Shown here: piece after piece, positions 1 through 25,189 of the stretch
Layout: the number at the start of each line of letters is the position of its first letter
How positions within the stretch are numbered: position 1 is the stretch's first letter
Source: Bordetella sp. H567
Lineage (GTDB): Bacteria; Pseudomonadota; Gammaproteobacteria; Burkholderiales; Burkholderiaceae_B
Length of the DNA stretch: 40,000 nucleotides
Reading direction: 5' to 3'
Assembly (NCBI RefSeq): GCF_001704295.1
Contig: NZ_CP012334.1
Span: forward strand, 716,084 to 756,083
Notes under the pieces: model-generated
Databases searched by the model: none
What the model saw: the letters and a program-made list of their open reading frames with translations, nothing else
What the model was told of the DNA's origin: nothing
Program-made: the position numbers and the translations under genes

Positions 1-97
1 GGCCGCGCGCGCCGGTCGTTCGAAAAGCGACGCCATGCCGGACTTTTTCACCGCTTTGGAGGGCCGCGATTTGTCGGATACTTGGGCCATTTGAGCC

Positions 98-1108
98 ATG
101 AACATTGCGGGAATCAAAGCGCGCCGTCTTCGTGAAAGCATGCCTACGCTGGCACAGGCATTGGATCGGTATCTCAACGAGGTGTCATCCACGAAAAAGG
201 GATACGTTCAGGAGCGCTCGATCGCCCGCGCTTGGCTCGGGACGCGTCTCGCGCAGCGGCCGGTCGATCGGATACGGAACACCGATCTGATCGCGATCCG
301 AGATGCCTGGCAGGCAGAGTGCGCCGCGTCCACGGTGGTGCGGCGCCTGGCGCTTCTATCGCATGTTTACACGGTTATCCGGAAGGACTGGGGGTTCGAT
401 GCGCTGGCAAATCCGGTGCAGCTCGTGCGCCGGCCTGCTGTCGACGACGCGCGCGATCGCCGTTTCCTTGATCGCATCCGGTTGCGAGGTCTTTCCGAGG
501 CGGATTGCCCGCGGCAAGAGGTGGTATGGCTTATGCGCGCCACCCAATCTCAGGAGCTACCGACTATCTTGACCGTGGCCGTGGAAACCGGCATGCGAAG
601 GTCGGAGATAGTCGGCGTCAGGCGTGAGAACTTGGACCTGCAGCACGGCGTTATCCATATCCCGCACTCGAAGAATGGCCGGTCAAGGGACGTCCCCCTG
701 ACGCCCGTGGCACGGGAGGCGTTGAGGCAGTGGGTGGTCGGTAAGCCCATGCGCGGCCGCATTTTTTCTATGCAGCCAGGCTCGGTGACACGGGCGTTTA
801 TCCGCGCGCGCCAACGGGCCAGGCGCCAGTATGAAGCGCTGTGCAAGACCAACGGTCGGCGGCCGAACCCGGCTTACTTCAACGACCTCCGGTTCCATGA
901 CGCGCGCCATGAAGGCACATCGCGTTTAGCGACGGTGTTCGAGATCCACGAATTGGCGAAGGTCAACGGCAATGTGGATACGCGGATGCTTCTACGCTAT
1001 TACCACCCGCTTGGCAGGGAACTCGCACAGAAGCTTGCGCGGAGCGCGCTAGGCAGGCGGCAGATCGCCGAGATTCGCGAGAGCCGCCTGCTGCTTGAGG
1101 CCGCTTAG
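98..1108 (+). CDS. Tyrosine recombinase, Rci-like; candidate shufflon recombinase, alternatively the prophage integrase
   Basis: 336 aa. Catalytic-domain motifs: AVETGMRRSEIVGVRRENLDLQHGVIHIPHSKNGRSRDVPL (Arg box), LRFHDARHEGTSR (H-x-x-R), LLRYYH (Tyr). N-terminal LAQALDRYLNEVSSTKKGYVQE...NPVQLVRRPAVDDARDRRF parallels my recollection of R64 Rci. Convergent with the tfa gene; stops overlap as TTAG at 1105-1108. Confidence 0.85.
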   Translation: MNIAGIKARRLRESMPTLAQALDRYLNEVSSTKKGYVQERSIARAWLGTRLAQRPVDRIRNTDLIAIRDAWQAECAASTVVRRLALLSHVYTVIRKDWGFDALANPVQLVRRPAVDDARDRRFLDRIRLRGLSEADCPRQEVVWLMRATQSQELPTILTVAVETGMRRSEIVGVRRENLDLQHGVIHIPHSKNGRSRDVPLTPVAREALRQWVVGKPMRGRIFSMQPGSVTRAFIRARQRARRQYEALCKTNGRRPNPAYFNDLRFHDARHEGTSRLATVFEIHELAKVNGNVDTRMLLRYYHPLGRELAQKLARSALGRRQIAEIRESRLLLEAA

Positions 1109-1449
1109 TCGCCAACTTGCGCGACCGGCGCGGTGGCCGTAAGCCAATCCGGTATCGGCCCCCAACCGGCGTAGGCCACCTGGTCGCCGCCTATCTCGAT
1201 CACGCTGCCGTGCGTGTACTGCTCGCTGGTGTCGACCACGTACAGCGCGGCGGCGCGGTGGTCCTCCACACTTTCCCAGGCGGCGCCGGTCCAGCGTGCC
1301 ACCTGTCCTTCCGCTACTTGCGGCGGGGGACTCTCCACCGCCCCATAGGGCACATTGAAGCTGCCAGCCTGCAGGGCAAGCTCGTTGGCGATGGTTTCGT
1401 AGAGGAAGAGTCCATCGAGATTTGTCTGAAAAACGGTCTTGGTTTTCAC
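1105..1449 (-). CDS. gpG: Tail fibre assembly protein (P2 gpG / Tfa family chaperone)
   Basis: 114 aa with a Tfa-like core: PPPQVAEGQVARWTGAAWESVEDHR...GPIPDWLTATAP. GTG start preceded by AAGGTGA. Lies immediately outside the last cassette. Confidence 0.75.
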   Translation of the reverse strand: MKTKTVFQTNLDGLFLYETIANELALQAGSFNVPYGAVESPPPQVAEGQVARWTGAAWESVEDHRAAALYVVDTSEQYTHGSVIEIGGDQVAYAGWGPIPDWLTATAPVAQVGD

Positions 1450-1474
1450 AATTCACCTTCATAGGTTGGATTTG

Positions 1475-1486
1475 CACTGCAAATGC
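1475..1486 (+). repeat. Core repeat S1 (CACTGCAAATGC), start of cassette E
   Basis: Exact 12-mer. Extended context CACTGCAAATGCGAGGACGCTGGGAA encodes TANARTLG. Confidence 0.9.
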
Positions 1487-1748
1487 GAGGACGCTGGGAA
1501 CTCGGCAGGCCGACGCTGGCCAGCGGTTCTCTGGCAACGTGAACTCTGTGCTGCGCGTGTCGCAGACTGAGGTCGCCGATGGAGTCTTCGTTAACCATCC
1601 TGTGCCCCAGCCTTTGCCGGTAAACACAGGCAGCACGTCGAGCGTCGTCGGCATAGTCGGGTTCAGCATCGACAATGCGAGACAGATCCGCGCGTCCACC
1701 GAAACCCGCGCTCTCAATACCGCCTTTTGTCCGCGCATCCATGTTTGA
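1475..1748 (+). other. Silent tail-fibre C-terminal cassette E (inverted relative to H)
   Basis: Open from the core: TANARTLGTRQADAGQRF...STETRALNTAFCPRIHV*. It is the most divergent cassette. Confidence 0.7.
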
Positions 1749-2019
1749 CGTACCTTTCACTGCAAATGCGAGAGCGCTGGGATCGCGCCAGTCCGCAGCC
1801 ATCGGCGGCCACCGGCACGCCCTTCGGTCCGCCTCCTCGGGCTCGTTTCCAAATACCCTTGGCACCGCCGGATCCTCGGATGCACTTGCATTGAAAGACA
1901 TGGCCGGCCCCATCTCGATCAATGCGTCTTTGGACATCAACGTAATGACGTCCGGCGAGAATGTTGGGAAAGAAACGCGCCCGGCGAACACCGCCTTCCA
2001 TCCTCGCATCCATGCCTGA
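1741..2019 (+). other. Silent tail-fibre C-terminal cassette D (inverted relative to H)
   Basis: MFDVPFTANARALGSRQSAAIGGHRHAL...GKETRPANTAFHPRIHA*. No SD; its ATG overlaps the end of cassette E. Confidence 0.75.
1758..1769 (+). repeat. Core repeat S2, start of cassette D
   Basis: Exact 12-mer. Context TTTCACTGCAAATGCGAGAGCGCTGGGAT encodes FTANARALG. Confidence 0.9.
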
Positions 2020-2284
2020 CGTCCTTTTCACTGCAAATGCAAGGGCATTCGGCGGCCGACAACTGGACGCCTTCCAAAACATCTACGGCTCCATCCCGGC
2101 TACCGGTACGCAGATAGAGTTGGCTACGGGAGTTTTCCAGCTTATGCCTCAGCCGCAAGCGTTTTGGACCGGAACGTCGGCGGCCGGCTTCGATGGGTTC
2201 AACTTCGATGCCAGCCGGGTGGCGCGGACGTCGTCGGAAACGCGGCCTGTCAACGTCGTTTTTCATCCGCGTATTCATGCCTAA
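2012..2284 (+). other. Silent tail-fibre C-terminal cassette C (inverted relative to H)
   Basis: MPDVLFTANARAFGGRQLDAFQNIYG...SSETRPVNVVFHPRIHA*. Its stop lies 1 nt from the convergent stop of cassette B. Confidence 0.75.
2029..2040 (+). repeat. Core repeat S3, start of cassette C
   Basis: Exact 12-mer. Context TTTTCACTGCAAATGCAAGGGCATTCGG encodes FTANARAFG. Confidence 0.9.
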
Positions 2285-2285
2285 T

Positions 2286-2522
2286 CTATGCGTGGATTCT
2301 CGGCGAAAACGCGGTATTCGTTGGGCGGGTTTCTGAACCGCCAGTTGGTGCGATGGAAGTCAGCACGAACGTTCCGCCGGTATTCGGCAGATTCGCGGTC
2401 GGACCGGTGCCGCCGCCGACCACATTGGCGCCGCTCTGGAGATTGTGGATGTGCGACCGGAACGCGTCAATCTGTCGACTTCCCAGTGCCCTTGCATTTG
2501 CAGTGAAAGGCACGTCACGCAT
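2286..2522 (-). other. Silent tail-fibre C-terminal cassette B (same orientation as H, directly downstream)
   Basis: MRDVPFTANARALGSRQIDAFRSHIHNL...GGSETRPTNTAFSPRIHA*. Its ATG overlaps the H stop (CATGCGTGACGTGCC). Confidence 0.75.
2494..2505 (-). repeat. Core repeat S4 (inverted relative to S1-S3), start of cassette B
   Basis: Plus strand reads GCATTTGCAGTG. Reverse complement context is TTTCACTGCAAATGCAAGGGCACTGGGAA. Confidence 0.9.
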
Positions 2523-3837
2523 GGATTCGCGGGTGATAAGCGGCGTTGACGGGGCGCGTCTCGGTTCCGCCGGTGACCAGGGTGGTGTACGTCAGCGCGC
2601 CGCCGCCGTCGAGGACCGATTGGTTGGCGCCAGACGCAGCCGCCGTGTTGCTGTATCGGAGATTGTGGGCGTGGGACTGAAGCTGGGCCGTCTGGCGGCT
2701 GCCCAGTGCCCTCGCATTTGCAGTGTCAGCGTCAGTCCCGGTGTAGCGGCGGAACATGTTGCGCAGATCCGGTACCCGGAAATTGTTGGCGTCCACGTCG
2801 ACGAAGTAGTGCGCGCCGACGTTGGCCGTCCAAACGGCCTGTGAGACCAGCAGGCCGTTTTGCTGGGCATACCCCCAAAGCGCGCCGTAGGCAGTCTTGC
2901 TCAGCAAGCCGCCGACCGCGTCGACCTCGGAGGGTAGAGGGCTCACCGTGTGGCCGTCCACGGGCCTGCCGCAAAGCGGAGATTTGTACCCGGTGAAATA
3001 TGCCGTGCTTACCCAGGTCCAGATCTCGGCGGCTTCGATGACCAGGATCGGGCCCTGGTCCTGAGCTGGCAACGCCAGGATCGAATACGCCTTCGGGTAC
3101 GACGCGAGGGCTTGCGTTATCGCGGCGGCGATCTGCAAATCCTGGAAGACCTCCGCCGGTGTCCGAGGGACCAAGGCGTTCACGCCGTCGCCCTTTAGGT
3201 AGGACCCAGCGGCGACGGAGGCAAGCCCGGTACCGCCCCGTGGCACCGGCAGGGTGCCTGCGGTGGCTTTACTCACGTCCAATGCCTTGACCACAATCTG
3301 GATGTCGCCGGCGCCGTCGAGCGCCACGGCATCGGCCGTCGCGCCGCCCGTAACCGAAATGTTCTTGTGCAGCTTGTCGTCGACGTACTTGCGCGTGGCC
3401 AGGACAACGGCAGGGTCGATCTTCAGGACAAATGCGGCGGTGCTGGCGACCATCAGCACCAGGCGCACGATTTGCTCCCGCGCGGATCCTTCCGCGAGCA
3501 CCGGCTTGTACGTCTCCGGGCAGTTCGCCACGGCCACAAGATCCCCATCGGCGTCGTAGAGGCCAATTTCTCGGATGTACCAGCCGCCCGCGTCTTCCGG
3601 GATCACCTGCTCGGCGATTAGGTAGTTCGGATTGTTCTCGTCCTGCTTCAGCGTGTTCAGCGGCGCCCGCCGCTTCTCGTCGATGAGCGCCGTCTGCGCT
3701 CGATCGGGGATTGGCGTGGCGCCGCCGCCGTCGCCCACGGCCATATGCGTAATTTGCACCAGCCGATTAATGGCCTGGGCGGCTGCCTGTTTGTTCTCTC
3801 CGATACGGGTCAGGAGGCCGAAGAATTGTTGAGTCAT
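2515..3837 (-). CDS. gpH: Tail fibre protein (P2 gpH-like), currently carrying cassette A as its C terminus
   Basis: Start at MTQQFFGLLTRIGENKQAAA..., with ATGA overlap onto the gpI stop; the 593-aa track ORF is an upstream over-extension. N terminus is gpH-like. C terminus is tail-collar-like: NNFRVPDLRNMFRR...SHAHNL...GGTETRPVNAAYHPRIHA. Confidence 0.9.
   Translation of the reverse strand: MTQQFFGLLTRIGENKQAAAQAINRLVQITHMAVGDGGGATPIPDRAQTALIDEKRRAPLNTLKQDENNPNYLIAEQVIPEDAGGWYIREIGLYDADGDLVAVANCPETYKPVLAEGSAREQIVRLVLMVASTAAFVLKIDPAVVLATRKYVDDKLHKNISVTGGATADAVALDGAGDIQIVVKALDVSKATAGTLPVPRGGTGLASVAAGSYLKGDGVNALVPRTPAEVFQDLQIAAAITQALASYPKAYSILALPAQDQGPILVIEAAEIWTWVSTAYFTGYKSPLCGRPVDGHTVSPLPSEVDAVGGLLSKTAYGALWGYAQQNGLLVSQAVWTANVGAHYFVDVDANNFRVPDLRNMFRRYTGTDADTANARALGSRQTAQLQSHAHNLRYSNTAAASGANQSVLDGGGALTYTTLVTGGTETRPVNAAYHPRIHA
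2714..2725 (-). repeat. Core repeat S5, inside the expressed tail-fibre gene at the constant/variable junction
   Basis: Plus strand reads GCATTTGCAGTG. Reverse complement context is GACGCTGACACTGCAAATGCGAGGGCACTGGGCA, encoding DADTANARALG. Confidence 0.9.
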
Positions 3838-4451
3838 GGGTATACCGTCACGGTGTCGATGATATGTTGACCGATAGCCGGGGCGGCGGTAGCGGTGGCC
3901 ACCAGCTCTTCGGGGATGTAGGGGTAGACCGTCATGGTGTCGCCGTCGTAGGCAGCGACCGCATAGTTCACCTGTGCCTCCGTCTGCATGGTGATGGACA
4001 GGCCGATCAGGTGTCGGCTGAGCGGCTTTGCGTCGTCGATCAGCCGCTCCAGCTCGTAATACAGATCCTCGGTGATCCCGGTATCGAGCACGCCCACGGA
4101 CAGGCGGAATGTGCCCGGCACGCCCCTCGGCGCCATGCGATACCACTCGATGAATTCCACCACGAAGCCAAGCGGCTCGACGGCTTTGCGAATGGCCGCT
4201 CGCGTTCCCTTGCGCTGGTGCAGGTTGAAGGACTCGGCGATGACCCTGCGCTTCACGTCCACCGGCCAGGACTCTACCCAGCGGTCGACCGACCACGCAG
4301 AGGCCAGATGTACCAGGAATGGTTCAGGGCAGTTGTACGGATCCCACAAGGCGCGCAGCGGGATCTCGACGCGCTCAATACCGGCCGCCGCGAGCGCGGT
4401 GCTGCGCTCCAGCGGCGTGGCGTTTGCGGGCAGCATGTCACGTTTAGCCAT
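3834..4451 (-). CDS. gpI: Baseplate/tail protein I (P2 gpI)
   Basis: 205 aa. MLPANATPLERSTALAAA...WDPYNCPEPFLVHLASAWSVDRW is typical of gpI. Position between J and H. Confidence 0.85.
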   Translation of the reverse strand: MAKRDMLPANATPLERSTALAAAGIERVEIPLRALWDPYNCPEPFLVHLASAWSVDRWVESWPVDVKRRVIAESFNLHQRKGTRAAIRKAVEPLGFVVEFIEWYRMAPRGVPGTFRLSVGVLDTGITEDLYYELERLIDDAKPLSRHLIGLSITMQTEAQVNYAVAAYDGDTMTVYPYIPEELVATATAAPAIGQHIIDTVTVYP

Positions 4452-5373
4452 TGTCGGTATCCACAGCAGCGGTGACGATCACGTCGGTGCAGGTCGCCGC
4501 CTGCGCGGCGGTGAGCACGATGTCAGCGGCAGGCTCTTCCAGGTCAAGGTGGGACACGCCTTCGACGTGGAGAAGCGCGGAGATCTGGGTGCGCCAGACG
4601 GACGCCCCTTGGCGCTGCGCACGCGACACGAATGCCTGCACGCGCGAGATGGCGGCGTTCACCGCCTCGGTCTGGCCAGGGCCGGAATTGCGCAGGTACA
4701 GCGTGGCCTTGACCTGGAACGGCACGATCTCGGAGGACTGGACGATCACCTCGTCGGCAAGCGGGCGGATCGTTTCCAGGTCCAGGGCGGCGTCCACCTT
4801 GGCGAGCAGGTCGGCGCTGGCTGTGCCGTCGCCCTCGCGTGACAGCACGGAAACGACTACTTGGCAGGGCGTTGGAGATACCGCGCTCACGTCGGCGATC
4901 GCGCCGTCAGCAGATCGGGCATGGTAGAGGTATGCGCCGCGCGGGCCAGCCACCGACATTCCCTCAAACGCTTCCGGAACGCGCTGGCGCAGAGAATCGT
5001 CGGTCTCGTAAATCGCAGGCACAGGAGGATAGGCAGTGTCGTCGCCTGGGGAGACAAGGAGCCGGGTGACGTTGTGCCGGGCGGCCAGGTTGTCGAGGTC
5101 GGCCTTGACCGCCGTCGCGACCAAGACCGCGCGGCACGCCTCGTTCACGCGCTGGCGCCACGTCAGTTCGCGTAGCGCGTTTTCCTGCAGGAGAATGGTC
5201 AGCGGCTCGGATTCTAGGGCCAGCACCGCGGCGATCGCCGGCTGCATGTCGACCGGGCACAGCGCGAGCAGGTCTGCCTTGCGTGTCGCCAGGATGGTTT
5301 CATAGTCCAGCGTCTCGACCACGTCGGGAACGGGGAGCAGGGACAGGTCGATAGGCGTCGATGCAGCGGCCAT
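4444..5373 (-). CDS. gpJ: Baseplate assembly protein J (P2 gpJ)
   Basis: 309 aa of Baseplate_J-like sequence, in synteny W-J-I. Confidence 0.85.
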   Translation of the reverse strand: MAAASTPIDLSLLPVPDVVETLDYETILATRKADLLALCPVDMQPAIAAVLALESEPLTILLQENALRELTWRQRVNEACRAVLVATAVKADLDNLAARHNVTRLLVSPGDDTAYPPVPAIYETDDSLRQRVPEAFEGMSVAGPRGAYLYHARSADGAIADVSAVSPTPCQVVVSVLSREGDGTASADLLAKVDAALDLETIRPLADEVIVQSSEIVPFQVKATLYLRNSGPGQTEAVNAAISRVQAFVSRAQRQGASVWRTQISALLHVEGVSHLDLEEPAADIVLTAAQAATCTDVIVTAAVDTDNG

Positions 5374-5374
5374 G

Positions 5375-5731
5375 CTATTGCCTTAAGGATGAGGTGGCGG
5401 TGAAGGGTTGCGTCTGGCCGTCGATGTCCGCGTCGCCCTCGACCGTGAGCGCGTAGGCGCCCGGGCTGCCGGCGTCCGCCGTCGCCGACACGCGCTTGAC
5501 CGTGACGCGCGGATCCCACGTCATGATCGCGGTAGCCGCCACGGCGTAAAGGCGAAGCAGCGTGGCTTGATTGCCGGGCTGGTCAATGAGGTCGGGCGCC
5601 TTGCTGCCGAATCGGCGCCGCATCGTGCGCGAGCCGATCATGGTGGTCAGAATCTTCCCGATCGACTGGACCAGATGGTCCAGTCCGGAGATCCAGCGGC
5701 CGGTCGCCGCGTTCATGCCGGTGTAGCTCAT
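5375..5731 (-). CDS. gpW: Baseplate protein W (GPW/gp25 family)
   Basis: 118 aa. GLDHLVQSIGKILTTMIGSRTMRRRFGSKAPDLIDQP is a gp25/GPW-type motif. Confidence 0.85.
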   Translation of the reverse strand: MSYTGMNAATGRWISGLDHLVQSIGKILTTMIGSRTMRRRFGSKAPDLIDQPGNQATLLRLYAVAATAIMTWDPRVTVKRVSATADAGSPGAYALTVEGDADIDGQTQPFTATSSLRQ

Positions 5732-10125: not shown

Positions 10126-10833
10126 TTAGCCGGGGTTTCCGGCGTGATTCTTCAGGCGACGTTGCAGACCTTCGATTTCCTTCTTGACGCCGATCTTCGG
10201 GAACAGTTGCATGGCACGCTCGAAGGCTTCGAGGGCGCGCTGCGCATACAGCAGGGTCGTTTCCGTCTCGGTGACGCCAGGGCAGCTCAGGGACAGCAGG
10301 GCGGCGCCCATGACCTTGAACAGCTTTGCGCGGGCCTGGTCGGGAGCATCGAATTTCTGGGTGAGGCGATCCGTCGCGTCGGCGATCTCGAAAACGGTCT
10401 TCGGATCCTCAACCTTGCCGATCAGCAGGGCGTCGGCCACCTCGTCGATAAGCGCGGTATGTAGGTCGCGCTTGTATCGTTGTGGCAGCTTGATGCCATG
10501 CGCCAAGAGGTAAGCGCCAATCTCCAGGGCACGAGCGAACCGGCCAGCGTCGATGTTCCAGATGCACAGGGTAGAGAGAACTTCGTCCTGTGCGCCTGAG
10601 CCGCCCAGCAGCACGCCGTCGATGTAATCGTCGTACTCGGGCACCAGCGTGGCCTTGGCCTCGATCTTGCGCTCGGTGGACTGAATGTCCTTGAGCCGGC
10701 GCATGTCGGTGATCAGCTTGGCCAGGAACAGATCGTAGATCGCGCCCGAGGCGACCACCTGGCCGGCCTCGGTTGCGGCGCCGCGCGCCCGGGCCAGCTC
10801 GCGCTCGCGATGACGTTGAGCAGGGCTGACCAT
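10126..10833 (-). CDS. gpM: Terminase endonuclease (small) subunit (P2 gpM)
   Basis: 235 aa, located directly after the capsid gene (1-nt gap). Confidence 0.8.
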   Translation of the reverse strand: MVSPAQRHRERELARARGAATEAGQVVASGAIYDLFLAKLITDMRRLKDIQSTERKIEAKATLVPEYDDYIDGVLLGGSGAQDEVLSTLCIWNIDAGRFARALEIGAYLLAHGIKLPQRYKRDLHTALIDEVADALLIGKVEDPKTVFEIADATDRLTQKFDAPDQARAKLFKVMGAALLSLSCPGVTETETTLLYAQRALEAFERAMQLFPKIGVKKEIEGLQRRLKNHAGNPG

Positions 10834-10834
10834 G

Positions 10835-11851
10835 TTAGGCGCCCGTCACGATTTCGATGTTCTCGGCCAGCGCGACAAAGCCGTAGTCTTCGACCACATA
10901 GTCGTCGTTGGACGATTCGTAGAACTCGACGCGATCGCGTTTCGCCGCGTCTTGGATATGAGTGCGGCGCGCGCCCTCCTGCCAGTACAGCGACAGGTTT
11001 TCGAACGCGGTGAGCAGCACCTTCCCCGGCGGGAAGTACGGCACGCTGAATGCCGGCCGGCCGCCCAGGCGCTTGGTGCTCATGATGACGTCGGCCGCGA
11101 CCTTCTCCGTCGCCTTGTCGCTGGTGTTGACGATCGGGAAGTACTTGTCGTGCAGCAGCCCGCTGCCGACGATGGCAACGAGGCGCGGATCTTCCTGATA
11201 CCAGGGGTCCAGCAGCTGGACCATGTCGAACACCAGCGCGTCCAGGTTGCCGTAGTCGCCGCCCGGGCCGACCTCGATCTTGCCGGAGGCCGCGACCACT
11301 TCCTTCATGACGTGCGCCGGCGCCCGCTCCCGACACTTTTGCAGCCAGCCCTTGTTGACGTCCTGCAGGAGCGGGTTCGCGTCGAGGTCGGTCGTGGCGG
11401 CGATGCTGGTGCCGTTGAAGCCGATCATGATGCGGTCCAGCTGCTGGCGCCGGATACGCGCGTTCGTGATGCGCACCTGGAAGTCCGGGAATTTCGCCCA
11501 GGAGTCCAGCAGCGCGTAGGGGATGTGCGTGTCGAAGTTGGTCTTTTGGCAGTCGTAGCCGTCCGTGTTCAGCGTCGTCAGATCGCGGGTGCTGCGCTCG
11601 GCGCCGCCGGACGTATTCGTGCGGCCGGAGGCGGGGCCGGAAACGCCCAAGCCGATTTTTTCGCCGGCCTTGTCCTGGACGCCGATGACGTTGATGCGCG
11701 TGAGGAAATCGCTGCTTTCCTGGATTCGGGTTTCGAGGGTCTGCTGCACAGACGGAGCGGCGCTGAATTTGACCGACGCGTCGGCGATGCCGTTCAGTTC
11801 GGCTTGGCGGGCCAGGTAGCCCGAAAAGAGGGTGCGGGTAGCGTTACGCAT
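10835..11851 (-). CDS. gpN: Major capsid protein (P2 gpN)
   Basis: 338 aa. MRNATRTLFSGYLARQAELNGI...IQESSDFLTRINVIGVQDKAGEKIGLGV closely parallels P2 gpN. Confidence 0.92.
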   Translation of the reverse strand: MRNATRTLFSGYLARQAELNGIADASVKFSAAPSVQQTLETRIQESSDFLTRINVIGVQDKAGEKIGLGVSGPASGRTNTSGGAERSTRDLTTLNTDGYDCQKTNFDTHIPYALLDSWAKFPDFQVRITNARIRRQQLDRIMIGFNGTSIAATTDLDANPLLQDVNKGWLQKCRERAPAHVMKEVVAASGKIEVGPGGDYGNLDALVFDMVQLLDPWYQEDPRLVAIVGSGLLHDKYFPIVNTSDKATEKVAADVIMSTKRLGGRPAFSVPYFPPGKVLLTAFENLSLYWQEGARRTHIQDAAKRDRVEFYESSNDDYVVEDYGFVALAENIEIVTGA

Positions 11852-11900
11852 GGAAGCGGTAGTCCTGTGTGGTGGCTATGGGCGTGAACTGTCGTTTCGG

Positions 11901-12722
11901 TCAGCAGTCGGCGCGCTGGGACGCGTCGGTGCCAGTGGCCGGTTTCAGCGGCGTAAACGAGCGCGGGGTGTTGTCCAGCTGTTCCTTCAGCTGGTTAAAG
12001 GCTTCGGCCGACACGTACTTGGAGGCGAACGACTCGAAGCGGTCGGCCATTTCCTTGAGCAGCTTGTCCCCCGCGGTGAACTTCGCCGTGACGTGCTCGG
12101 CCAGTTGGGTGACCGCTTCTTCGACCTGCTTGAAATGGTCGGCATCGTTGGCCTTTTCCCGGCTCAGCAGTTCACGCAGGCGCTGGAACAGCTTCGGCGT
12201 TTTATCGTCGGCGGGCGGCTCTTCGTCCGCGAAGTCGAAGACCGTTTCGAGGGCCGACGAGAAGAGGCAATCCGCGTTGCGTTTGCGGCTCGCGTAGGGG
12301 TGCTTGTCGGGGTTCTGCGCGGCGAATGCCAGAATGTCCGTGCCCAGGCTTGCCGGCGTGTCGGTAACGGCCAGGCCGGTCAGGTAGGCTTTGCCGCTCT
12401 TGGCGAAGTTGGGATCCACCTCGATCGAGGTGTAGATCTTCTGCCGCGACTTCGACAGCGCCACCAGTTCGGGCGTGGGGTCGATCTGGACCTGCAGCTG
12501 CAGCTTGCCGTCGGTCTCGATGGTCTGGGCGGCGGTCACGTCGCCATACGCGCGGAAAATGCTGTCGGGAATGAGGCTGATGAGGTGTTCGACCGAGACG
12601 CGCGCGCCGTAGGTCTTCTGGCTGTAGGTTTGGGCGATCTGTTCCAGCCAGGCGCGTTCGATGACGCGCCCGTCAGTGGTTTGGCCTTCGGTGGCAACGG
12701 TGAACCATTTCGGGGTCGGCAT
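11901..12722 (-). CDS. gpO: Capsid scaffolding protein (P2 gpO)
   Basis: MPTPKWFTVATEGQTTDGRVIERAWLEQIAQTY...VEHL...FRAYGDV parallels P2 gpO. The track ORF start at 12758 is a TTG and looks less likely. Confidence 0.85.
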   Translation of the reverse strand: MPTPKWFTVATEGQTTDGRVIERAWLEQIAQTYSQKTYGARVSVEHLISLIPDSIFRAYGDVTAAQTIETDGKLQLQVQIDPTPELVALSKSRQKIYTSIEVDPNFAKSGKAYLTGLAVTDTPASLGTDILAFAAQNPDKHPYASRKRNADCLFSSALETVFDFADEEPPADDKTPKLFQRLRELLSREKANDADHFKQVEEAVTQLAEHVTAKFTAGDKLLKEMADRFESFASKYVSAEAFNQLKEQLDNTPRSFTPLKPATGTDASQRADC

Positions 12723-14629: not shown

Positions 14630-15687
14630 TGAAAGCTACCCAGCGCGCAGCGAATAAAATGGACGTGCCGCAGGCGCCAGCACATTCGACAAGCGTTCAG
14701 GCATTTTCGTTCGGCGAGCCCGAGCCAGTGCTGAATCGGCGCGAGATCCTGGACTATATCGAATGCTGGAATAACGGCCGATGGTACGAGCCGCCGGTCA
14801 GCTTCGCCGGCCTCGCGAAGTCGTTCCGGGCCAGCACGCACCACAGTTCCGCGATCTACTTTAAGGCCAATATCCTGGCTTCGACGCTCCGGCCGAATCC
14901 CTACTTGAGCCGTCTCACGATGAAGAAGCTGGCCGTCGATTTCCAGATCTTCGGCAATGCTTACCCGGTGCGCTCTCTGAGCATGACCGGCAAGCTTCTT
15001 TCCGTTGAATCGCGGCTCGCCAAGTACGTGCGCCGTGGCTTGGACATGGACACCTATTATTGGGTGCCGGCCTACAGCCAAGAGCAGCAGTTCGCGCCCG
15101 ACGAGATCTTCCAGCTGATCGACCCGGACGTGAATCAGGAGGTCTATGGGCTCCCGGAGTATCTCAGCACGCTCCAGTCGGCCTGGCTGAACGAATCGGC
15201 GACGCTGTTCCGCCGGAAGTACTACAACAACGGCAGCCACGCCGGGTTCATTCTGTACATGAACGATGCGGCCCAGAATCAGGAGGACATCGACAACGTG
15301 CGCGAGGCGATGAAAAACGCGAAGGGGCCGGGCAACTTCCGGAACCTGTTTATCTACTCGCCCAACGGCAAGAAGGACGGCATCCAATTGATCCCGGTCA
15401 GCGAGGTCGCGGCGAAGGATGATTTTTTCAACATCAAGAACGTCACGCGCGACGACATCCTTGCGGCGCATCGCGTTCCGCCACAGCTTATGGGCATTGT
15501 GCCGAGCAACACCGGCGGGTTTGGCGCAATCATTCCCGCGGCTCAGGTGTTCGCCACGAATGAGATCGAACCATTGCAGGCCAGATTCATGGAGATCAAT
15601 GATTGGCTAGGGGTAAAGGCGATCGCCTTCGATCCTTATCGCGTGGACGTTACAGTATCGAGTGGCGAGAAGCCATCGGTCACCTAA
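14626..15687 (+). CDS. gpQ: Portal protein (P2 gpQ)
   Basis: 353 aa. ATGA overlap with P, giving the P-then-Q order of P2. Confidence 0.9.
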   Translation: MMKATQRAANKMDVPQAPAHSTSVQAFSFGEPEPVLNRREILDYIECWNNGRWYEPPVSFAGLAKSFRASTHHSSAIYFKANILASTLRPNPYLSRLTMKKLAVDFQIFGNAYPVRSLSMTGKLLSVESRLAKYVRRGLDMDTYYWVPAYSQEQQFAPDEIFQLIDPDVNQEVYGLPEYLSTLQSAWLNESATLFRRKYYNNGSHAGFILYMNDAAQNQEDIDNVREAMKNAKGPGNFRNLFIYSPNGKKDGIQLIPVSEVAAKDDFFNIKNVTRDDILAAHRVPPQLMGIVPSNTGGFGAIIPAAQVFATNEIEPLQARFMEINDWLGVKAIAFDPYRVDVTVSSGEKPSVT

Positions 15688-16673
15688 ACCCGCGCGGCGC
15701 GTTCACCGGTGACTTTCCGCGCCGGCTTATCTTCCCGCACGCCCTGGAACGATGCCTGCCGCAGAATGCCGCCATCCGTGATGGTGGTGTAGGCCACTTC
15801 CACGACGAGTTCCGGCCGCACCCAGTGCATGGTGGGCTTGGAATTGCCGCCCCACCGATCGGACAGGACCGGCCGCTCCGTGAACGGCATCTCGTCCGTC
15901 GCCAACGGCGCCAAGCGCTTCATGAGCATGTCGATGGTGCCGCCGCTGAAACCCGTGCCGACTCGGCCGGAATAGCGCAGCTTGTCGCCCTCACGCAGCC
16001 CGACGAGCAGGGCGCCGAAGCCCGTGCGCGATCCGCCCGGGTTTGTCCAGCCACCGACGACGAATTCCTGACGCGGCCGGCATTTCAACTTGATCCAGGT
16101 ATCCGTGCGGCCGGCGCGGTACGGCGCGTCCTTGCGCTTGCCTATCAGCCCTTCCAGCTGCCGCCGGCAGGCTTCAGCCAGCAGCTCGGCCGCGTGATCG
16201 CCCGTATCGACGTCGGCCACCACGCTGCGGACGATGGCTGCGTTCTCCGGCACGCCGGCCAGCACCGCCTGCAGGGCCTTGGCACGCTCCGAAAAAGGGT
16301 AGTCGCGTAGGTCCTTCCCGTTCCAGTACGGGACGTCGAACGCGACGAACTGCACCTGCTTCGCTACGCTCTTGTCCATCGCGTTTTGCAGGCGCTGGAA
16401 GCTGCTGATCCCGTATTCATCCATGACGACGATCTCGCCGTCCAGCCAGCCGGTGCCGGTGCCCAGCTCCAGCGCTCGGATGCGCGCGACCAGGTCGGCG
16501 AGCTTCGGCGTCCAGTCCTTTGCCTCGCGGCTGTAGAAGCGCGCGCCCGCGTCGTCGATCCGGCACAGCATCCGATAGCCGTCGAACTTGACCTCGTAGG
16601 CGTAGCCGCCGGAGGGCGGCTCCTTCACCAGCGTGGCCAGTGGCGGCTTGACGAAGTCGGGCAGGGCGGACAT
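15684..16673 (-). CDS. ATP-dependent DNA ligase, stand-alone LigD/LigC-type ligase domain
   Basis: 329 aa. Nucleotidyltransferase motifs EVKFDGYRM (I, KxDGxR), LDGEIVV (III), FVAFDVPY (IIIa), EGLIGKR (IV), WIKLK (V), followed by an OB-fold-length tail. Confidence 0.88.
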   Translation of the reverse strand: MSALPDFVKPPLATLVKEPPSGGYAYEVKFDGYRMLCRIDDAGARFYSREAKDWTPKLADLVARIRALELGTGTGWLDGEIVVMDEYGISSFQRLQNAMDKSVAKQVQFVAFDVPYWNGKDLRDYPFSERAKALQAVLAGVPENAAIVRSVVADVDTGDHAAELLAEACRRQLEGLIGKRKDAPYRAGRTDTWIKLKCRPRQEFVVGGWTNPGGSRTGFGALLVGLREGDKLRYSGRVGTGFSGGTIDMLMKRLAPLATDEMPFTERPVLSDRWGGNSKPTMHWVRPELVVEVAYTTITDGGILRQASFQGVREDKPARKVTGERAARV

Positions 16674-16675
16674 GG

Positions 16676-16855
16676 CTATTTCTTGAGCGCCGCGCGGACC
16701 TTCTCCGCCGAATTACTGCCGGCGTCCTTCACTGCCTGGCGCAGCTGCTCCGGGCTGCAGCCCAGCTCCTTGGTCCAGTACCGGACCTCATGGTCCTGCT
16801 CCAAGCTGATACGGGCACGGTCGCGGGGCCCACGGTCGTTTAGATTGTCCGACAT
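16676..16855 (-). CDS. DUF3606 domain protein
   Basis: 59 aa from MSDNLNDRGPRDRARISLEQDHEVRYWTKELGCSPEQLRQAVKDAG. Strong SD: AGGAGcaaatcATG. Confidence 0.75.
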   Translation of the reverse strand: MSDNLNDRGPRDRARISLEQDHEVRYWTKELGCSPEQLRQAVKDAGSNSAEKVRAALKK

Positions 16856-16933
16856 GATTTGCTCCTGGGTGAATGCGGCAATGCCGCAGAGCAAAGTGCG
16901 TGCCGTCGCGGCCGCGGCGGTTCCCGGCGCGCC

Positions 16934-17323
16934 TCACCGCCGCCGCGGCTTACGCTTTGCCGCCCCGATCTCAGCCGCGCGGGCCTGCCATCGTTCAGGC
17001 GGCCCGACGAATCGGTCGACCATGCTGCTGCCCAGGACCTGGGGAATCTCCAGGTGTGGACGCCCACCGGGCTCGGCCTCCAGATCCCGCCGAAACTCTT
17101 CCCAGATCGAATCGAGGCAGCTGCCCGGCCGAGGGAAGCGGTCGCGCAGCTCTCTCGCACGCTGGACGATCTCGCGCAGGCGATCGACCTCGCCAAGCAG
17201 GACGGCCATGTCCCGCTCCACCGCCGCGCCGTCGAACATGCATGGCGCGCGGGCCGGCGTCACCTCGTAGCGTAGGCGGATGCGGTGCAGGTCGTCATGC
17301 GTGAGCGGCGGCCGGGCGGGCAT
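16934..17323 (-). CDS. Hypothetical protein (129 aa)
   Basis: Open frame in operon position upstream of DUF3606/ligase. No recognisable motif, no clear SD, start uncertain. Confidence 0.45.
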   Translation of the reverse strand: MPARPPLTHDDLHRIRLRYEVTPARAPCMFDGAAVERDMAVLLGEVDRLREIVQRARELRDRFPRPGSCLDSIWEEFRRDLEAEPGGRPHLEIPQVLGSSMVDRFVGPPERWQARAAEIGAAKRKPRRR

Positions 17324-17338
17324 GGTCGGGTAGAGAGG

Positions 17339-17354
17339 CTGTATGGATATCCAG
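17339..17354. promoter_or_regulatory. LexA (SOS) box-like palindrome
   Basis: CTGTATGGATATCCAG has the CTG-N10-CAG form and differs from CTGT-N8-ACAG at one position. Lies 15 nt upstream of the 129-aa ORF start. Confidence 0.4.
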
Positions 17355-17361
17355 TGTATCG

Positions 17362-18084
17362 CTACTCCAGGGCGAACGGCTGCTGGCCCTGCTCAACCGG
17401 TTCTATGGCGTCGGGCCGCTCGTAGCGATAATTGCCGACTTCCTGGCGCACGCGGTGCCAGGTGAAGGCGGATTCCGGCAGCGCATGCGCGAGTATTTCC
17501 CGGGCGCGCGTCAGCGTGGTCGCGGGGTCGACCCATTCGACGGCCAACTCCGGCGGCAGGGCCACCGGGCGCCGGTCATGCATGTCCACCATGCCGCCCT
17601 GGGTATCGTTCGTCACGATGGCCATGCCGTGTTCCTTGCCGTGCTCGCGGCCAGGGCGCCAGGCGCACACCGCGGCTAAGAACAGCGGTTCGTCGTTGGC
17701 GTGGTGGATGAAGTAGGGCACCTTCGGCCCCTTGGGATCGTCGGTCAACCACTTCCATTCGTACCAGCCATCGGCCGGCACGATCGCGCGGCCGCCTTCC
17801 TTCAGCAGCCAATTCCACGGCCATTTGCCCGCGGCGATGGTTTCGGTCTTGGCGTTGCTGATCGGCGCGCGGCGCCAGTCGCTGGGCTTGTAACCCCAGT
17901 AGATGCGCTCCACCTCCAGCTGCCCGCCGCTGAACCGATGGAAGGCCATGGGCCGTGCGCCCGGCGGGATGTTGTAGCGCGGGCCGACAGGGTCGGGCGG
18001 GAACAGCTCGCCCGCTCTGGGCGCCCTGATGATCTTTTCCAGGTAATCGTCCGGGTTGTTCTTCTGCACGATACGGCCACACAT
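17362..18084 (-). CDS. SOS response-associated peptidase (SRAP/YedK family)
   Basis: Start at MCGRIVQK (catalytic Cys2). The 344-aa track ORF is an upstream over-extension. Confidence 0.88.
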   Translation of the reverse strand: MCGRIVQKNNPDDYLEKIIRAPRAGELFPPDPVGPRYNIPPGARPMAFHRFSGGQLEVERIYWGYKPSDWRRAPISNAKTETIAAGKWPWNWLLKEGGRAIVPADGWYEWKWLTDDPKGPKVPYFIHHANDEPLFLAAVCAWRPGREHGKEHGMAIVTNDTQGGMVDMHDRRPVALPPELAVEWVDPATTLTRAREILAHALPESAFTWHRVRQEVGNYRYERPDAIEPVEQGQQPFALE

Positions 18085-18439
18085 GAGGCGCTCCGATTCG
18101 AAGGGGTACCTGGACATGGTATCGCAGCCGACAGCCCAACAGCGGGCCCGTATTACGGCCCCAGGGGCATCGGCGCTCGGGTGCGGCGCCGGCCCGCGGG
18201 CCGCGGCCCATCCCAGCCCGGCGCGCGCCGTCATCCCCCCACCTCGCCCGCTCGCCAAACGGAGCGCTTTTGACTCAGACCTGCGTCGTCCCGCCAGCCC
18301 GGCGCCATGCGGCGCTTTCGGGCATTGAGGCTCGCCTATTGGTGACGCAAAAAGACGCAGTCTGAGCCCGGCTCCGACCATGGATCGCCGGGGCATCGGC
18401 GGTGTACTCTCAGCGTTTTACAAATTGACCGGGTGACCC

Positions 18440-22146: not shown

Positions 22147-23148
22147 TCAATGTAGCGGCTTAATGTTGCGCATCCGCAGAATTCCGTTCCAACGGTCAGT
22201 CTCTTCGACGATGAGTTCCTTGAACGCGGCCGGCGTGTTGGGTTGCAGCGGCGTAGCAAAGGCCTGTTGCGCCATGGCGTCGTGCAGTGCCGGGTCCATC
22301 AGCGCTGCATTGATGGATCGGTTGAGTTTTGCGATCACATGGGGCGGTGTGCCAGCCGGCGCGACCAAGCCGCTCCAGTCCCCAAGCTCGAGCCCCGACA
22401 GTTCCGACACGCCGGCTTCATCCAGCGTCGGCACATGAGCCATGGCCGGTATCCGTCGAGGCGACATCGCGACGATCGGCCTGAGTTTTCCCGCCCGGAT
22501 GTGGGGCAGCGTCCCGGCAACAGGCGCGATATAGATGTCTATCCGACCGCCCATTACGTCCGTTAGCGCCTGCGCGCCACCGCTGTATGGCACATGCCGG
22601 ATGTCGAGATCCATTTCCTGTTGCAGCAGTTCACACAACAGATGCGCGGTTGTCCCTGTCCCGGGGGACGCGCAACTCAGCGCCCCTGGATACGTACGGG
22701 CGATCCTTACCACATCCTGTACGGTAGCGATCGGGCTGTGCGTGGCGCTCACCATGACGAACGGTAGTCTGGCGACCAGCCCAACCGGGACCAGATCGCG
22801 TGCGAAGTCATACTTCATGGTTCCATACATCGATTTGTGTATGGTGTTCGGCCGTCCTCCAAGGAAGACCGTATAGCCGTCCGGCGTCGCGCGGGCGACA
22901 TATTCCGCGCCGATGTTGCCGCCGGCGCCAGGTTTGTACTGGACGATCACTTTTTTTCCGAGGGCTTCGCCCATGGAATGCGCGAGGAGCCGGGCCAGGG
23001 CATCGGCACTGCCGCCGGGTGGGAAACCAATCACCAGCGCAACCGGACGCTGCGGGTATACCGCTTCCTGGTCGGCCGCCATAGCTCCCCATGGCGCAGC
23101 CGCGGTCATCAAGGCAATGGCTGCGAGGTCCTGCTTGAGATGCTGCAT
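22147..23148 (-). CDS. Bug-family (TctC-like) tripartite tricarboxylate transporter substrate-binding protein, copy 1
   Basis: 333 aa with a signal peptide. YPQRPVALVIGFPPGGSADALARLL...QYKPGAGGNIGAEYVARATPDGYT is the Bug family signature. Confidence 0.9.
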   Translation of the reverse strand: MQHLKQDLAAIALMTAAAPWGAMAADQEAVYPQRPVALVIGFPPGGSADALARLLAHSMGEALGKKVIVQYKPGAGGNIGAEYVARATPDGYTVFLGGRPNTIHKSMYGTMKYDFARDLVPVGLVARLPFVMVSATHSPIATVQDVVRIARTYPGALSCASPGTGTTAHLLCELLQQEMDLDIRHVPYSGGAQALTDVMGGRIDIYIAPVAGTLPHIRAGKLRPIVAMSPRRIPAMAHVPTLDEAGVSELSGLELGDWSGLVAPAGTPPHVIAKLNRSINAALMDPALHDAMAQQAFATPLQPNTPAAFKELIVEETDRWNGILRMRNIKPLH

Positions 23149-24187: not shown

Positions 24188-25189
24188 TCAATGTAGCGGC
24201 TTGATATTGCGCATCCGCAGGATTCCGTTCCAGCGGTCGGTCTCTTCGGCGATGAGTTCCTTGAATGCAGCCGGCGTGTTGGGTTGCAGCGGCGTAGCGA
24301 AAGCTTGCTGCGCCATGGCGTCGTGCAGTGCGGGCTCCATCAGCGCTGCGTTGATGGATCGGTTGAGTTTTGCGATCACATGCGGCGGCGTGCCGGCGGG
24401 CACCAGTAGACCGCTCCAGGCTCCAAGCTCAAGTCCTGACAGTTCCGACACGCCGGCTTCTTCCAGCGTGGGCACATCGGGTATTGCGGGTGTCCGTAGA
24501 GAAGACATGGTGACGAGCGGCCTGAGCCTGCCTGCGCGGATGTGGGGCAGCCCCTCGGCAACGGTTGCGATATATAGGTCTATCCGACCGCCCATCACGT
24601 CTGTCAACGCTTGCGCGCCACCGCTGTAAGGAACATGCTGCATGTCGATGCCCACTTCCTGTTGGAGCAATTCGCAAAGCAGATGGGACGTTGTTCCCAT
24701 GCCGGAAGAGGCACAACTGAGCCCCCCGGGATACGTTCGGGCCAGCCTCACGACATCGTGTACGGAGGCGATGGGGGCATGGGTGCTGGTCACCATGACG
24801 AAGGGTATCGTTGCGACCAAACCCACCGGGACCAGATCGCGCGCAAAGTCATACTTCATGGTCCCGTACATCGTTTTGTGTATGGTGTTCGGTCTTCCAC
24901 CAAGAAAGACTGTATAGCCATCCGGTGTGGCGCGCGCGACATATTCCGCACCGATATTGCCGCCGGCGCCAGGCTTGTACTGGATGATCATTTTTTGGCC
25001 AAGCGCCTCGCCAACGTGGGCCGCGAGGAGCCGGGCCAGCGTATCCGCACTACCGCCGGCCGGGTAGCCAATTACCAGGGTAACCGGGCGCTGCGGGTAT
25101 ACGGCTTCCTGGTCGGATGCCATCGCCCACCACGGGGCGATGGCGCTTGCCAGCACGACGGCGGCGAGGTTTCTCTTGAGAAGGTGCAT
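24188..25189 (-). CDS. Bug-family (TctC-like) substrate-binding protein, copy 2
   Basis: 333 aa, colinear with copy 1. The last ~70 aa are almost identical. Confidence 0.9.
   Translation of the reverse strand: MHLLKRNLAAVVLASAIAPWWAMASDQEAVYPQRPVTLVIGYPAGGSADTLARLLAAHVGEALGQKMIIQYKPGAGGNIGAEYVARATPDGYTVFLGGRPNTIHKTMYGTMKYDFARDLVPVGLVATIPFVMVTSTHAPIASVHDVVRLARTYPGGLSCASSGMGTTSHLLCELLQQEVGIDMQHVPYSGGAQALTDVMGGRIDLYIATVAEGLPHIRAGRLRPLVTMSSLRTPAIPDVPTLEEAGVSELSGLELGAWSGLLVPAGTPPHVIAKLNRSINAALMEPALHDAMAQQAFATPLQPNTPAAFKELIAEETDRWNGILRMRNIKPLH

Follow-up and report, generated by a model that had tools for sequence, protein, structure and literature searches.

The tail-fibre locus and its cassettes

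We describe the distal end of a phage tail-fibre gene, H, in Bordetella sp. H567, where five short cassettes headed by copies of one 12-bp core form a strong candidate for a tail-fibre shufflon. The stretch of DNA that was examined, called the window in what follows, comprises 40,000 nucleotides (contig NZ_CP012334.1, positions 716,084 to 756,083 of the forward strand), and the locus occupies its left edge. The features of the locus are given here in window coordinates, with protein lengths in amino acids (aa).

98 to 1108, + strand: Rci-like tyrosine recombinase, 336 aa, presumed shufflon invertase (PF00589, E 5.9e-19)
1105 to 1449, - strand: tail-fibre assembly (chaperone)-like gene, 114 aa (phrog_105, E 3.6e-8; phrog_1807, E 1.4e-8)
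1470 to 1486, + strand: S1, terminal crossover site beside the assembly gene (core 1475-1486)
1476 to 1748, + strand: cassette E, 90 aa, silent, inverted relative to H (TANARTLGTRQ...ETRALNTAFCPRIHV, then stop)
1758 to 1769, + strand: S2 crossover core
1759 to 2019, + strand: cassette D, 86 aa, silent, inverted relative to H (from translation)
2029 to 2040, + strand: S3 crossover core
2030 to 2284, + strand: cassette C, 84 aa, silent, inverted relative to H and convergent with B (from translation)
2286 to 2504, - strand: cassette B, 72 aa, silent, on the H strand (from translation)
2494 to 2505, - strand: S4 crossover core
2515 to 2724, - strand: cassette A, 69 aa, current C-terminus of H (from translation)
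2714 to 2725, - strand: S5 crossover core within H, at the boundary of constant and variable parts
2726 to 3837, - strand: constant part of H, with a P2 gpH-like N-terminus (PF12571, E 8e-58)

The core CACTGCAAATGC has five exact copies in the window (1475+, 1758+, 2029+, 2494- and 2714-) and is present in both orientations, with three copies on the + strand and two on the - strand. Its chance expectation is 0.31 even when one mismatch is allowed, and none of 100 shuffles of the sequence gave five. All five cores are read in the same codon phase, C-ACT-GCA-AAT-GC, which encodes Thr-Ala-Asn-Ala (TANA). Each core heads one cassette, and the translations show all five to be intact (A 69, B 72, C 84, D 86 and E 90 aa). 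The cassettes start with TANAR(A/T)(L/F)G and end with ETR(P/A)xNxxxxPRIH(A/V) before the stop, contain no second open reading frame, and differ from each other in length and in sequence throughout. From the translations and an enumeration of possible inversions, the cassettes give alternative in-frame 3' ends of the single gene H. The whole of this gene, with S5 inside it, runs from 3837 to 2515 on the - strand and encodes a protein 100% identical to AKI39_03175 of Bordetella sp. H567. When its homologues are aligned, conservation stops at ...TDADTANARALGSRQ.

The sites are asymmetric in what surrounds the core. The left flanks resemble each other only at S2 to S4, where the end of a cassette precedes the core. 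In alignments of the five sites and of 70 distinct sites from relatives, the 12-mer was invariant, the left side variable and the right side partly conserved, the last being inseparable from protein-coding constraint. The longest sequence common to any two sites is 22 bp. S1 and its non-coding left flank form a 7-1-7 palindrome, ATTTGCA-C-TGCAAAT (1470-1484), and of 68 multi-site loci 41 have exactly one such palindromic site preceded by ATTTG, while none has two. Scans of positions 1-4000 for promoters and terminators gave no signal above chance.

The core is conserved as DNA and not only as protein. In the prophage genes Thr is encoded by ACT in 5.9% of cases, Ala by GCA in 8.8% and Asn by AAT in 28%. 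A single Thr-Ala-Asn would thus be written ACT-GCA-AAT with a probability of about 0.0015, and yet this combination is used in all five copies. The 12-mer is also unchanged in Bordetella bronchialis, B. pseudohinzii, Achromobacter, Corticimicrobacter, Pandoraea and Burkholderia multivorans, although the recombinases at these loci share only 64-82% identity. Third codon positions to the right of the core do vary, as constraint on the protein alone would give. As rare codons are used and the synonymous positions are invariant, the core DNA itself is under selection.

Much of this layout had been proposed by a sequence-only reading of the same DNA. Its five 12-mers, with their positions and strands, were recovered by exact search, and its placing of S5 inside H, of cassette B on the H strand and of C, D and E on the opposite strand is correct. 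The open segments of 70-90 aa that it described correspond to the intact cassettes of 69-90 aa and do share the ending given above, and the left-flank alignment bears out its view that upstream similarity is confined to S2, S3 and S4. It was also right that every core lies at the same codon position, but the Phe or Asp that it placed before the Thr does not hold at S1, where the residue is Cys. Disabling mutations in the silent cassettes, which it had named as something that would refute it, were not found, as all of the cassettes are intact by translation. The recombinase at 98-1108 and the common assembly gene at 1105-1449 lie beyond what it covered.

Evidence for shuffling of the array

Evidence for rearrangement comes from relatives. 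Three B. bronchialis loci (L085, L086 and L087) encode an identical recombinase and have flanks that are 100% identical, but their segments are ordered a-b-c (L085, a complete genome), b-c-a' (L086) and b-a-c' (L087). Among them the breakpoints all fall within the 12-bp core, and the length of H changes with the arrangement, from 368 aa in L085 to 354 aa in L086. The three loci hold the same four left halves and the same four right halves, combined differently at the core. Such reassortment of left and right half-sites is characteristic of conservative site-specific exchange. Ten Achromobacter loci that share one identical recombinase have three to six sites and the same sets of cassettes in varied order and orientation, with the fibre gene joined to six different cassettes. 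In Pandoraea sputorum a single inversion between two cores separates two assemblies. In all three groups of relatives the sequences flanking the permuted arrays are identical or nearly so. Two Achromobacter loci with identical recombinases, L089 (7641-8150) and L091 (7641-8422), differ by an inversion and by one cassette that was precisely lost or gained between directly repeated cores, so direct-repeat recombination at cores does occur at least occasionally. The arrangements across relatives are permuted. One fixed order, which by its own account would have refuted the sequence-only reading, is not what they show, and the breakpoints lie where that reading had placed the exchange point, in or just after the core.

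An alternative source of such permutations is RecA-dependent homologous recombination or gene conversion between similar cassettes, with no dedicated recombinase involved. The cassettes do have conserved ends, TANARALGSRQ at the 5' end and ETRP..PRIHA at the 3' end, which could pair. However, the breakpoints in the relatives consist of the 12-bp core and at most four adjacent identical bases and do not spread across the longer conserved stretches. A length of 12 bp is far under the usual requirement of RecA. Additionally, the synonymous sites of the core are conserved against codon bias and the arrays are tightly linked to an Rci homologue. We find the RecA explanation hardly credible.

For the H567 element itself we relied on short-read Logan contigs that encode an identical recombinase or an identical protein I. 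Three of these contigs end at crossover sites. L002 stops at 1769 and L001 at 2040, which are the last bases of the S2 and S3 cores, and L088, which comes from the constant side of H, stops at 2711, 3 nt beyond the S5 core (GAG). This last position is the point where the right halves R5 (gagG) and R2 (gagA) part. Logan assemblies use k=31. Since the contigs end 0-3 nt past the cores and no repeat of at least 30 bp is present there, the reads probably contained mixed arrangements, and the simplest reading is that the sequenced populations of the H567 element were mixtures. As evidence this is indirect, and for the H567 copy it is the least secure part of the case.

This bears on the possibility that the array is frozen, in which case the cassettes would be paralogues left by past duplication or shuffling, the H-A product would be the only one made and the silent cassettes would be relics. 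The contiguous sequence of the H567 element does show one arrangement only, both in the window and in contig L003, which crosses S1-S3, and some related arrays have no recombinase nearby. A frozen state is nevertheless difficult to reconcile with five cassettes, a recombinase and five cores that are all intact, with three independent contig ends within 0-3 nt past cores where there is no repeat of at least 30 bp, or with close relatives that demonstrably shuffle. We judge it improbable.

Contigs carrying these recombinases are often 1.5-8 kb long, and several of those that we inspected end within the array. Draft genomes may systematically fragment at the array, and complete genomes may record one arbitrary state.

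The recombinase

The recombinase at 98-1108 resembles the shufflon recombinase of conjugative plasmids. BLASTP against the Rci of an IncI plasmid gave 35% identity over 307 aligned columns (Rci residues 10-283, E 1e-43), and a tblastn search of plasmids returned 2291 records, mostly of IncI-type conjugative plasmids and some annotated as rci. The protein aligns with Rci from its N-terminus and therefore has no arm-binding domain. In the family alignment the catalytic-type Arg, Lys, HxxR and Tyr positions are retained. The gene is convergent with the assembly gene and lies in the middle of the tail cluster, away from the prophage end. No serine-recombinase (resolvase/invertase) family is among the Pfam families listed for neighbouring genes, either here or in relatives. 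On this sequence evidence, the enzyme encoded at 98-1108 is most likely the one that flips DNA at the 12-bp cores.

The gene could instead be a prophage integrase or an unrelated moron, with inversion carried out by an enzyme encoded elsewhere. Its best matches in phage databases are annotated integrases of about 36% identity, PHROGs places it in 'integrase' families, and five arrays have no adjacent copy. These points have to be set against its location, which is between the fibre-assembly gene and the methylase and sheath genes in mid tail cluster, whereas the right end of the prophage is at the portal gene some 15.7 kb into the window. A related Achromobacter prophage (L092) has a separate, canonical integrase with an arm-binding domain, and P2-like and Mu-like tail modules alike keep the order of recombinase, chaperone, array and fibre gene. 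As for another enzyme, the annotated neighbourhood holds no serine invertase. We see very little chance that the inversions are the work of anything but the 98-1108 recombinase.

A model of the proposed switch

We hold it very probable that the locus is a phage tail-fibre shufflon, that is, a multiple-inversion switch. In this model the 98-1108 recombinase would recombine pairs of oppositely oriented cores and invert the DNA between them. Only oppositely oriented cores would invert, and S1, by the assembly gene, and S5, in H, would be the fixed outer sites. As S5 is in frame within H and all the cores share one codon phase, each inversion at S5 would swap the last 69-90 residues of the fibre. 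The enumeration of inversions from the reference state gave 48 reachable configurations and five isoforms of H, which are A at present, C, D or E after one inversion and B after two. This agrees with the sequence-only reading, which had S5 fusing H in frame to E, D and C by inversion with S1, S2 and S3, had B reachable by two inversions and counted five tips. The breakpoints in relatives place the exchange within the 12-bp core and resolve it to that length. The sfx sites have a 7-bp spacer and a conserved right arm (PMC11852207); by analogy, CACTGCA may be the spacer here and AATGC the start of the right arm.

The extreme C-terminus common to the cassettes (ETRPxNxxxxPRIHA) probably lets one assembly protein serve every isoform. 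That one chaperone serves all the tips is suggested because the cassette C-termini are conserved and a single assembly gene lies outside the array. A lysogen population and its virions would then carry mixed fibre tips, presumably spreading risk over the surface receptors of the host, and we infer that the isoforms differ in receptor specificity.

There are also points that count against the model. The case for activity of the H567 copy comes from contig ends and depends on k=31 in the Logan assemblies. The recombinase has an Asn (GNVDTRMLLRYYH) where a catalytic His or Trp is usual. It is also missing the C-terminal extension of about 100 residues found in Rci, as the alignment reaches no further than residue 283 of the 384 in Rci, beyond which only 23 residues remain here. 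This extension is thought to enforce the inversion-only behaviour of Rci (PMC11852207). Lastly, 5 of 32 arrays, including the nine-core array L178, have no recombinase within 2 kb.

Extent of the family and possible exchange of cassettes

The array is not restricted to H567. A 20-mer that spans the H junction and the core is found in 83 IMG/VR viral contigs, whose arrays have from 1 to 9 cores. Among the 32 IMG/VR loci with enough flanking sequence, 27 have a homologue of the recombinase (45-93% identical) at about 0.3-2 kb from the array, usually with the assembly gene alone in between. The loci fetched in total contain 256 cassettes with a stop codon, encoding 180 distinct cassette proteins. 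The largest array, L178 (IMG/VR, 10176-12257), has nine cores and no recombinase homologue in the 2.1 kb past its assembly gene. Arrays of this kind that lack an adjacent recombinase may be served in trans or may be frozen. Recombinase homologues of 32-53% identity (L013-L084) have no repeated-core arrays beside them and are probably ordinary integrases.

The module of recombinase, chaperone and array, with an identical core, is also found on Mu-like baseplate and fibre modules with Gp44-48 homologues, in Achromobacter and Burkholderia multivorans (L089-L098 and L101). Judged by these loci, the module is portable between P2-like and Mu-like tail types, and the array family spans P2-like and Mu-like prophages of the Burkholderiales and is widespread.

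Individual cassettes may also move between phages. Two pairs of loci (L151 10189-10440 with L184 4125-4376, and L154 12398-12608 with L105 1-211) share a single cassette that is about 96% identical in phages that are otherwise unrelated. The neighbouring sequence, which includes the constant part of the fibre gene, is 74-75% identical or unalignable, and the block of high identity begins exactly at the core, which suggests horizontal cassette exchange. A more speculative extension is that the array is an integron-like pool of receptor-binding tips, horizontally shared, in which cassettes are excised as circles and captured by other arrays. The arguments for it are that the same core is found in at least five genera, in P2-like as well as Mu-like prophages, that the Rci domain presumed to act against direct-repeat recombination is missing, that a single cassette has been gained or lost between direct cores and that the cassettes of about 96% identity are bounded by the core. 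We regard this extension as possible but doubtful. If it were true, co-resident or co-infecting phages would trade host-range tips.

Prophage context and neighbouring genes

By its gene content the window holds a P2-like prophage. The matched P2-like set includes Tail_P2_I, Baseplate_J, the PF12571 fibre, GPW, V, S and R, as well as lysis, capsid, terminase and portal genes. The gene order is that of P2, V-W-J-I-H-G. The I, J, W and V homologues share the - strand with H and precede it, so that their window coordinates are higher. On the right the prophage stops behind the portal gene, near 15.7 kb of the window, with host genes beyond. To the left of the window edge are a D12 methylase gene and then the sheath, tube and tape-measure genes. 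The assembly gene is on the same strand as H, is present in a single copy outside the invertible region, and keeps its place between recombinase and array in related loci. A search for near-identical DNA with positions 1-5400 found no match among isolated phage genomes. A tblastn search of the isolated phage collection with the tip of H returned single-copy matches only, so no sequenced isolate in that collection has the array.

With the H-B fusion the Pfam Collar family reaches E 0.044 only, and a tail-collar domain in the tip is no more than a lead. In an AlphaFold model the constant residues 250-360 are confident, and the cassette part has a predicted local distance difference test (pLDDT) score below 50. 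Foldseek against the PDB matched the N-terminal fibre domain alone and gave no fold match for the cassette.

Several other genes were seen along the way. The slot between the recombinase and the tail sheath holds variable cargo, which here is the D12 adenine methylase (L001 4801-5592) and in B. bronchialis (L085 3545-5740) is an N6/N4 methylase with a Com-type zinc ribbon plus a RES-domain protein. Directly after the portal gene, at 15684-18396 of the window, are an ATP-dependent DNA ligase (PF01068/PF04679) and a SRAP-domain protein. Further on, at 22147-23148 and 24188-25189, two paralogous tripartite tricarboxylate receptors of the TctC family, each of 333 aa, lie on the same strand about 1 kb apart; such a pair is ordinary in Bordetella-like genomes.

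Implications

Bordetella, Achromobacter, Burkholderia and Pandoraea are opportunists of the cystic-fibrosis airway, and if the model is correct their temperate phages would carry a programmed switch of host range that offers up to nine tips. This bears on the prediction of phage host range, on phage therapy and on the engineering of tailocins. It also affects genome assembly, as short-read contigs would break at the array and reference genomes would freeze one arbitrary state. The compact Rci-like recombinase and its new 12-bp core could in addition provide an orthogonal tool for shuffling sequences in vivo.

Comparison with known systems

One of the closest known systems is the shufflon of R64 and other IncI plasmids. 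Both systems have a homologous recombinase without an arm-binding domain, multiple sites in both orientations and segments that are alternative C-termini of one surface adhesin gene, and in both the sites show one asymmetry, conservation extending over the core and the right side but not the left (PMC11852207). They differ in the target, which is the PilV pilus adhesin in IncI and the tail fibre H here, and in the repeats, as the IncI sfx sequence GTGCCAATCCGGTACSTGG is unrelated to the core CACTGCAAATGC. Rci is also described as inversion-only, whereas relatives of the H567 array show the precise gain or loss of one cassette between direct cores. Rci has been assigned to the IntP2 subgroup and lacks an arm-binding domain (PMC8138268). 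Fourteen further Rci homologues were tested recently, with no mention of a phage context, and our core is in none of the shufflon-invertase reporters of that study (PMC11852207).

The target is shared with the invertases Min, Gin (Mu) and Cin (P1) and with the FR-phi system. As proposed here, inversion in these systems exchanges the C-terminal end of the tail fibre of a myovirus, and in them this changes the host range. They depend on serine invertases, whereas the recombinase here is a tyrosine recombinase (PF00589). In Mu and P1 each variable segment has its own assembly gene; the array here has instead one assembly gene outside it, and its cassettes are of 69-90 aa with a common C-terminal motif. 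Multi-site inversion of a tail fibre was already described for Min of the plasmid-prophage p15B, a serine invertase with several crossover sites and many configurations (PMC6109161), and FR-phi has a Gin-driven tail-fibre shufflon of three isoforms (PMC13418256). The sequence-only reading had called the present switch richer than the Mu G and P1 C segments, which is true, but given Min of p15B and the Rin system this richness is not new (PMC6109161).

Rin, from Bifidobacterium prophages, is similar in its described architecture, being a prophage tyrosine recombinase without an arm-binding domain that lies beside cassettes for the C-terminus of a receptor-binding protein, with a short asymmetric repeat (11 bp in Rin) and five alleles (PMC6109161). 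It differs in having an actinobacterial host, a siphovirus-type phage and an unrelated rix repeat, TTCCCTAACCC. The Rin cassettes are also whole genes of low mutual identity, whereas those of H567 are sub-domain tips with shared ends. A BV01-like phage of Phocaeicola likewise has a recombinase-flanked array of several cassettes over the distal end of a tail fibre, with directional motifs of 10 bp and all configurations present in read data (PMC13596623). This is a Bacteroidota phage with an unrelated motif, TGGGAGAACT, and its three cassettes give six variants through different stop positions.

Bordetella phages are known for another way of varying the same structure. In BPP-1 a diversity-generating retroelement (DGR) diversifies the tip of the tail fibre (Mtd) and switches tropism. 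The DGR alters a single variable repeat through mutagenic reverse transcription, whereas the array described here inverts pre-made cassettes of varied length. Judging by the cassette sequences, we set a DGR aside as an explanation for the array, as the cassettes differ throughout in length and sequence and not at adenine-templated positions.

More generally, programmed inversions are statistically enriched in tail-fibre genes across bacteria (PMC9881135). A search of open-access papers and preprints found no description of this core or array family, and the matches to the core sequence were unrelated primers only. Multi-inversion tail-fibre switches and Rci shufflons are thus both already known, and the H567 array is a new and widespread case of them.

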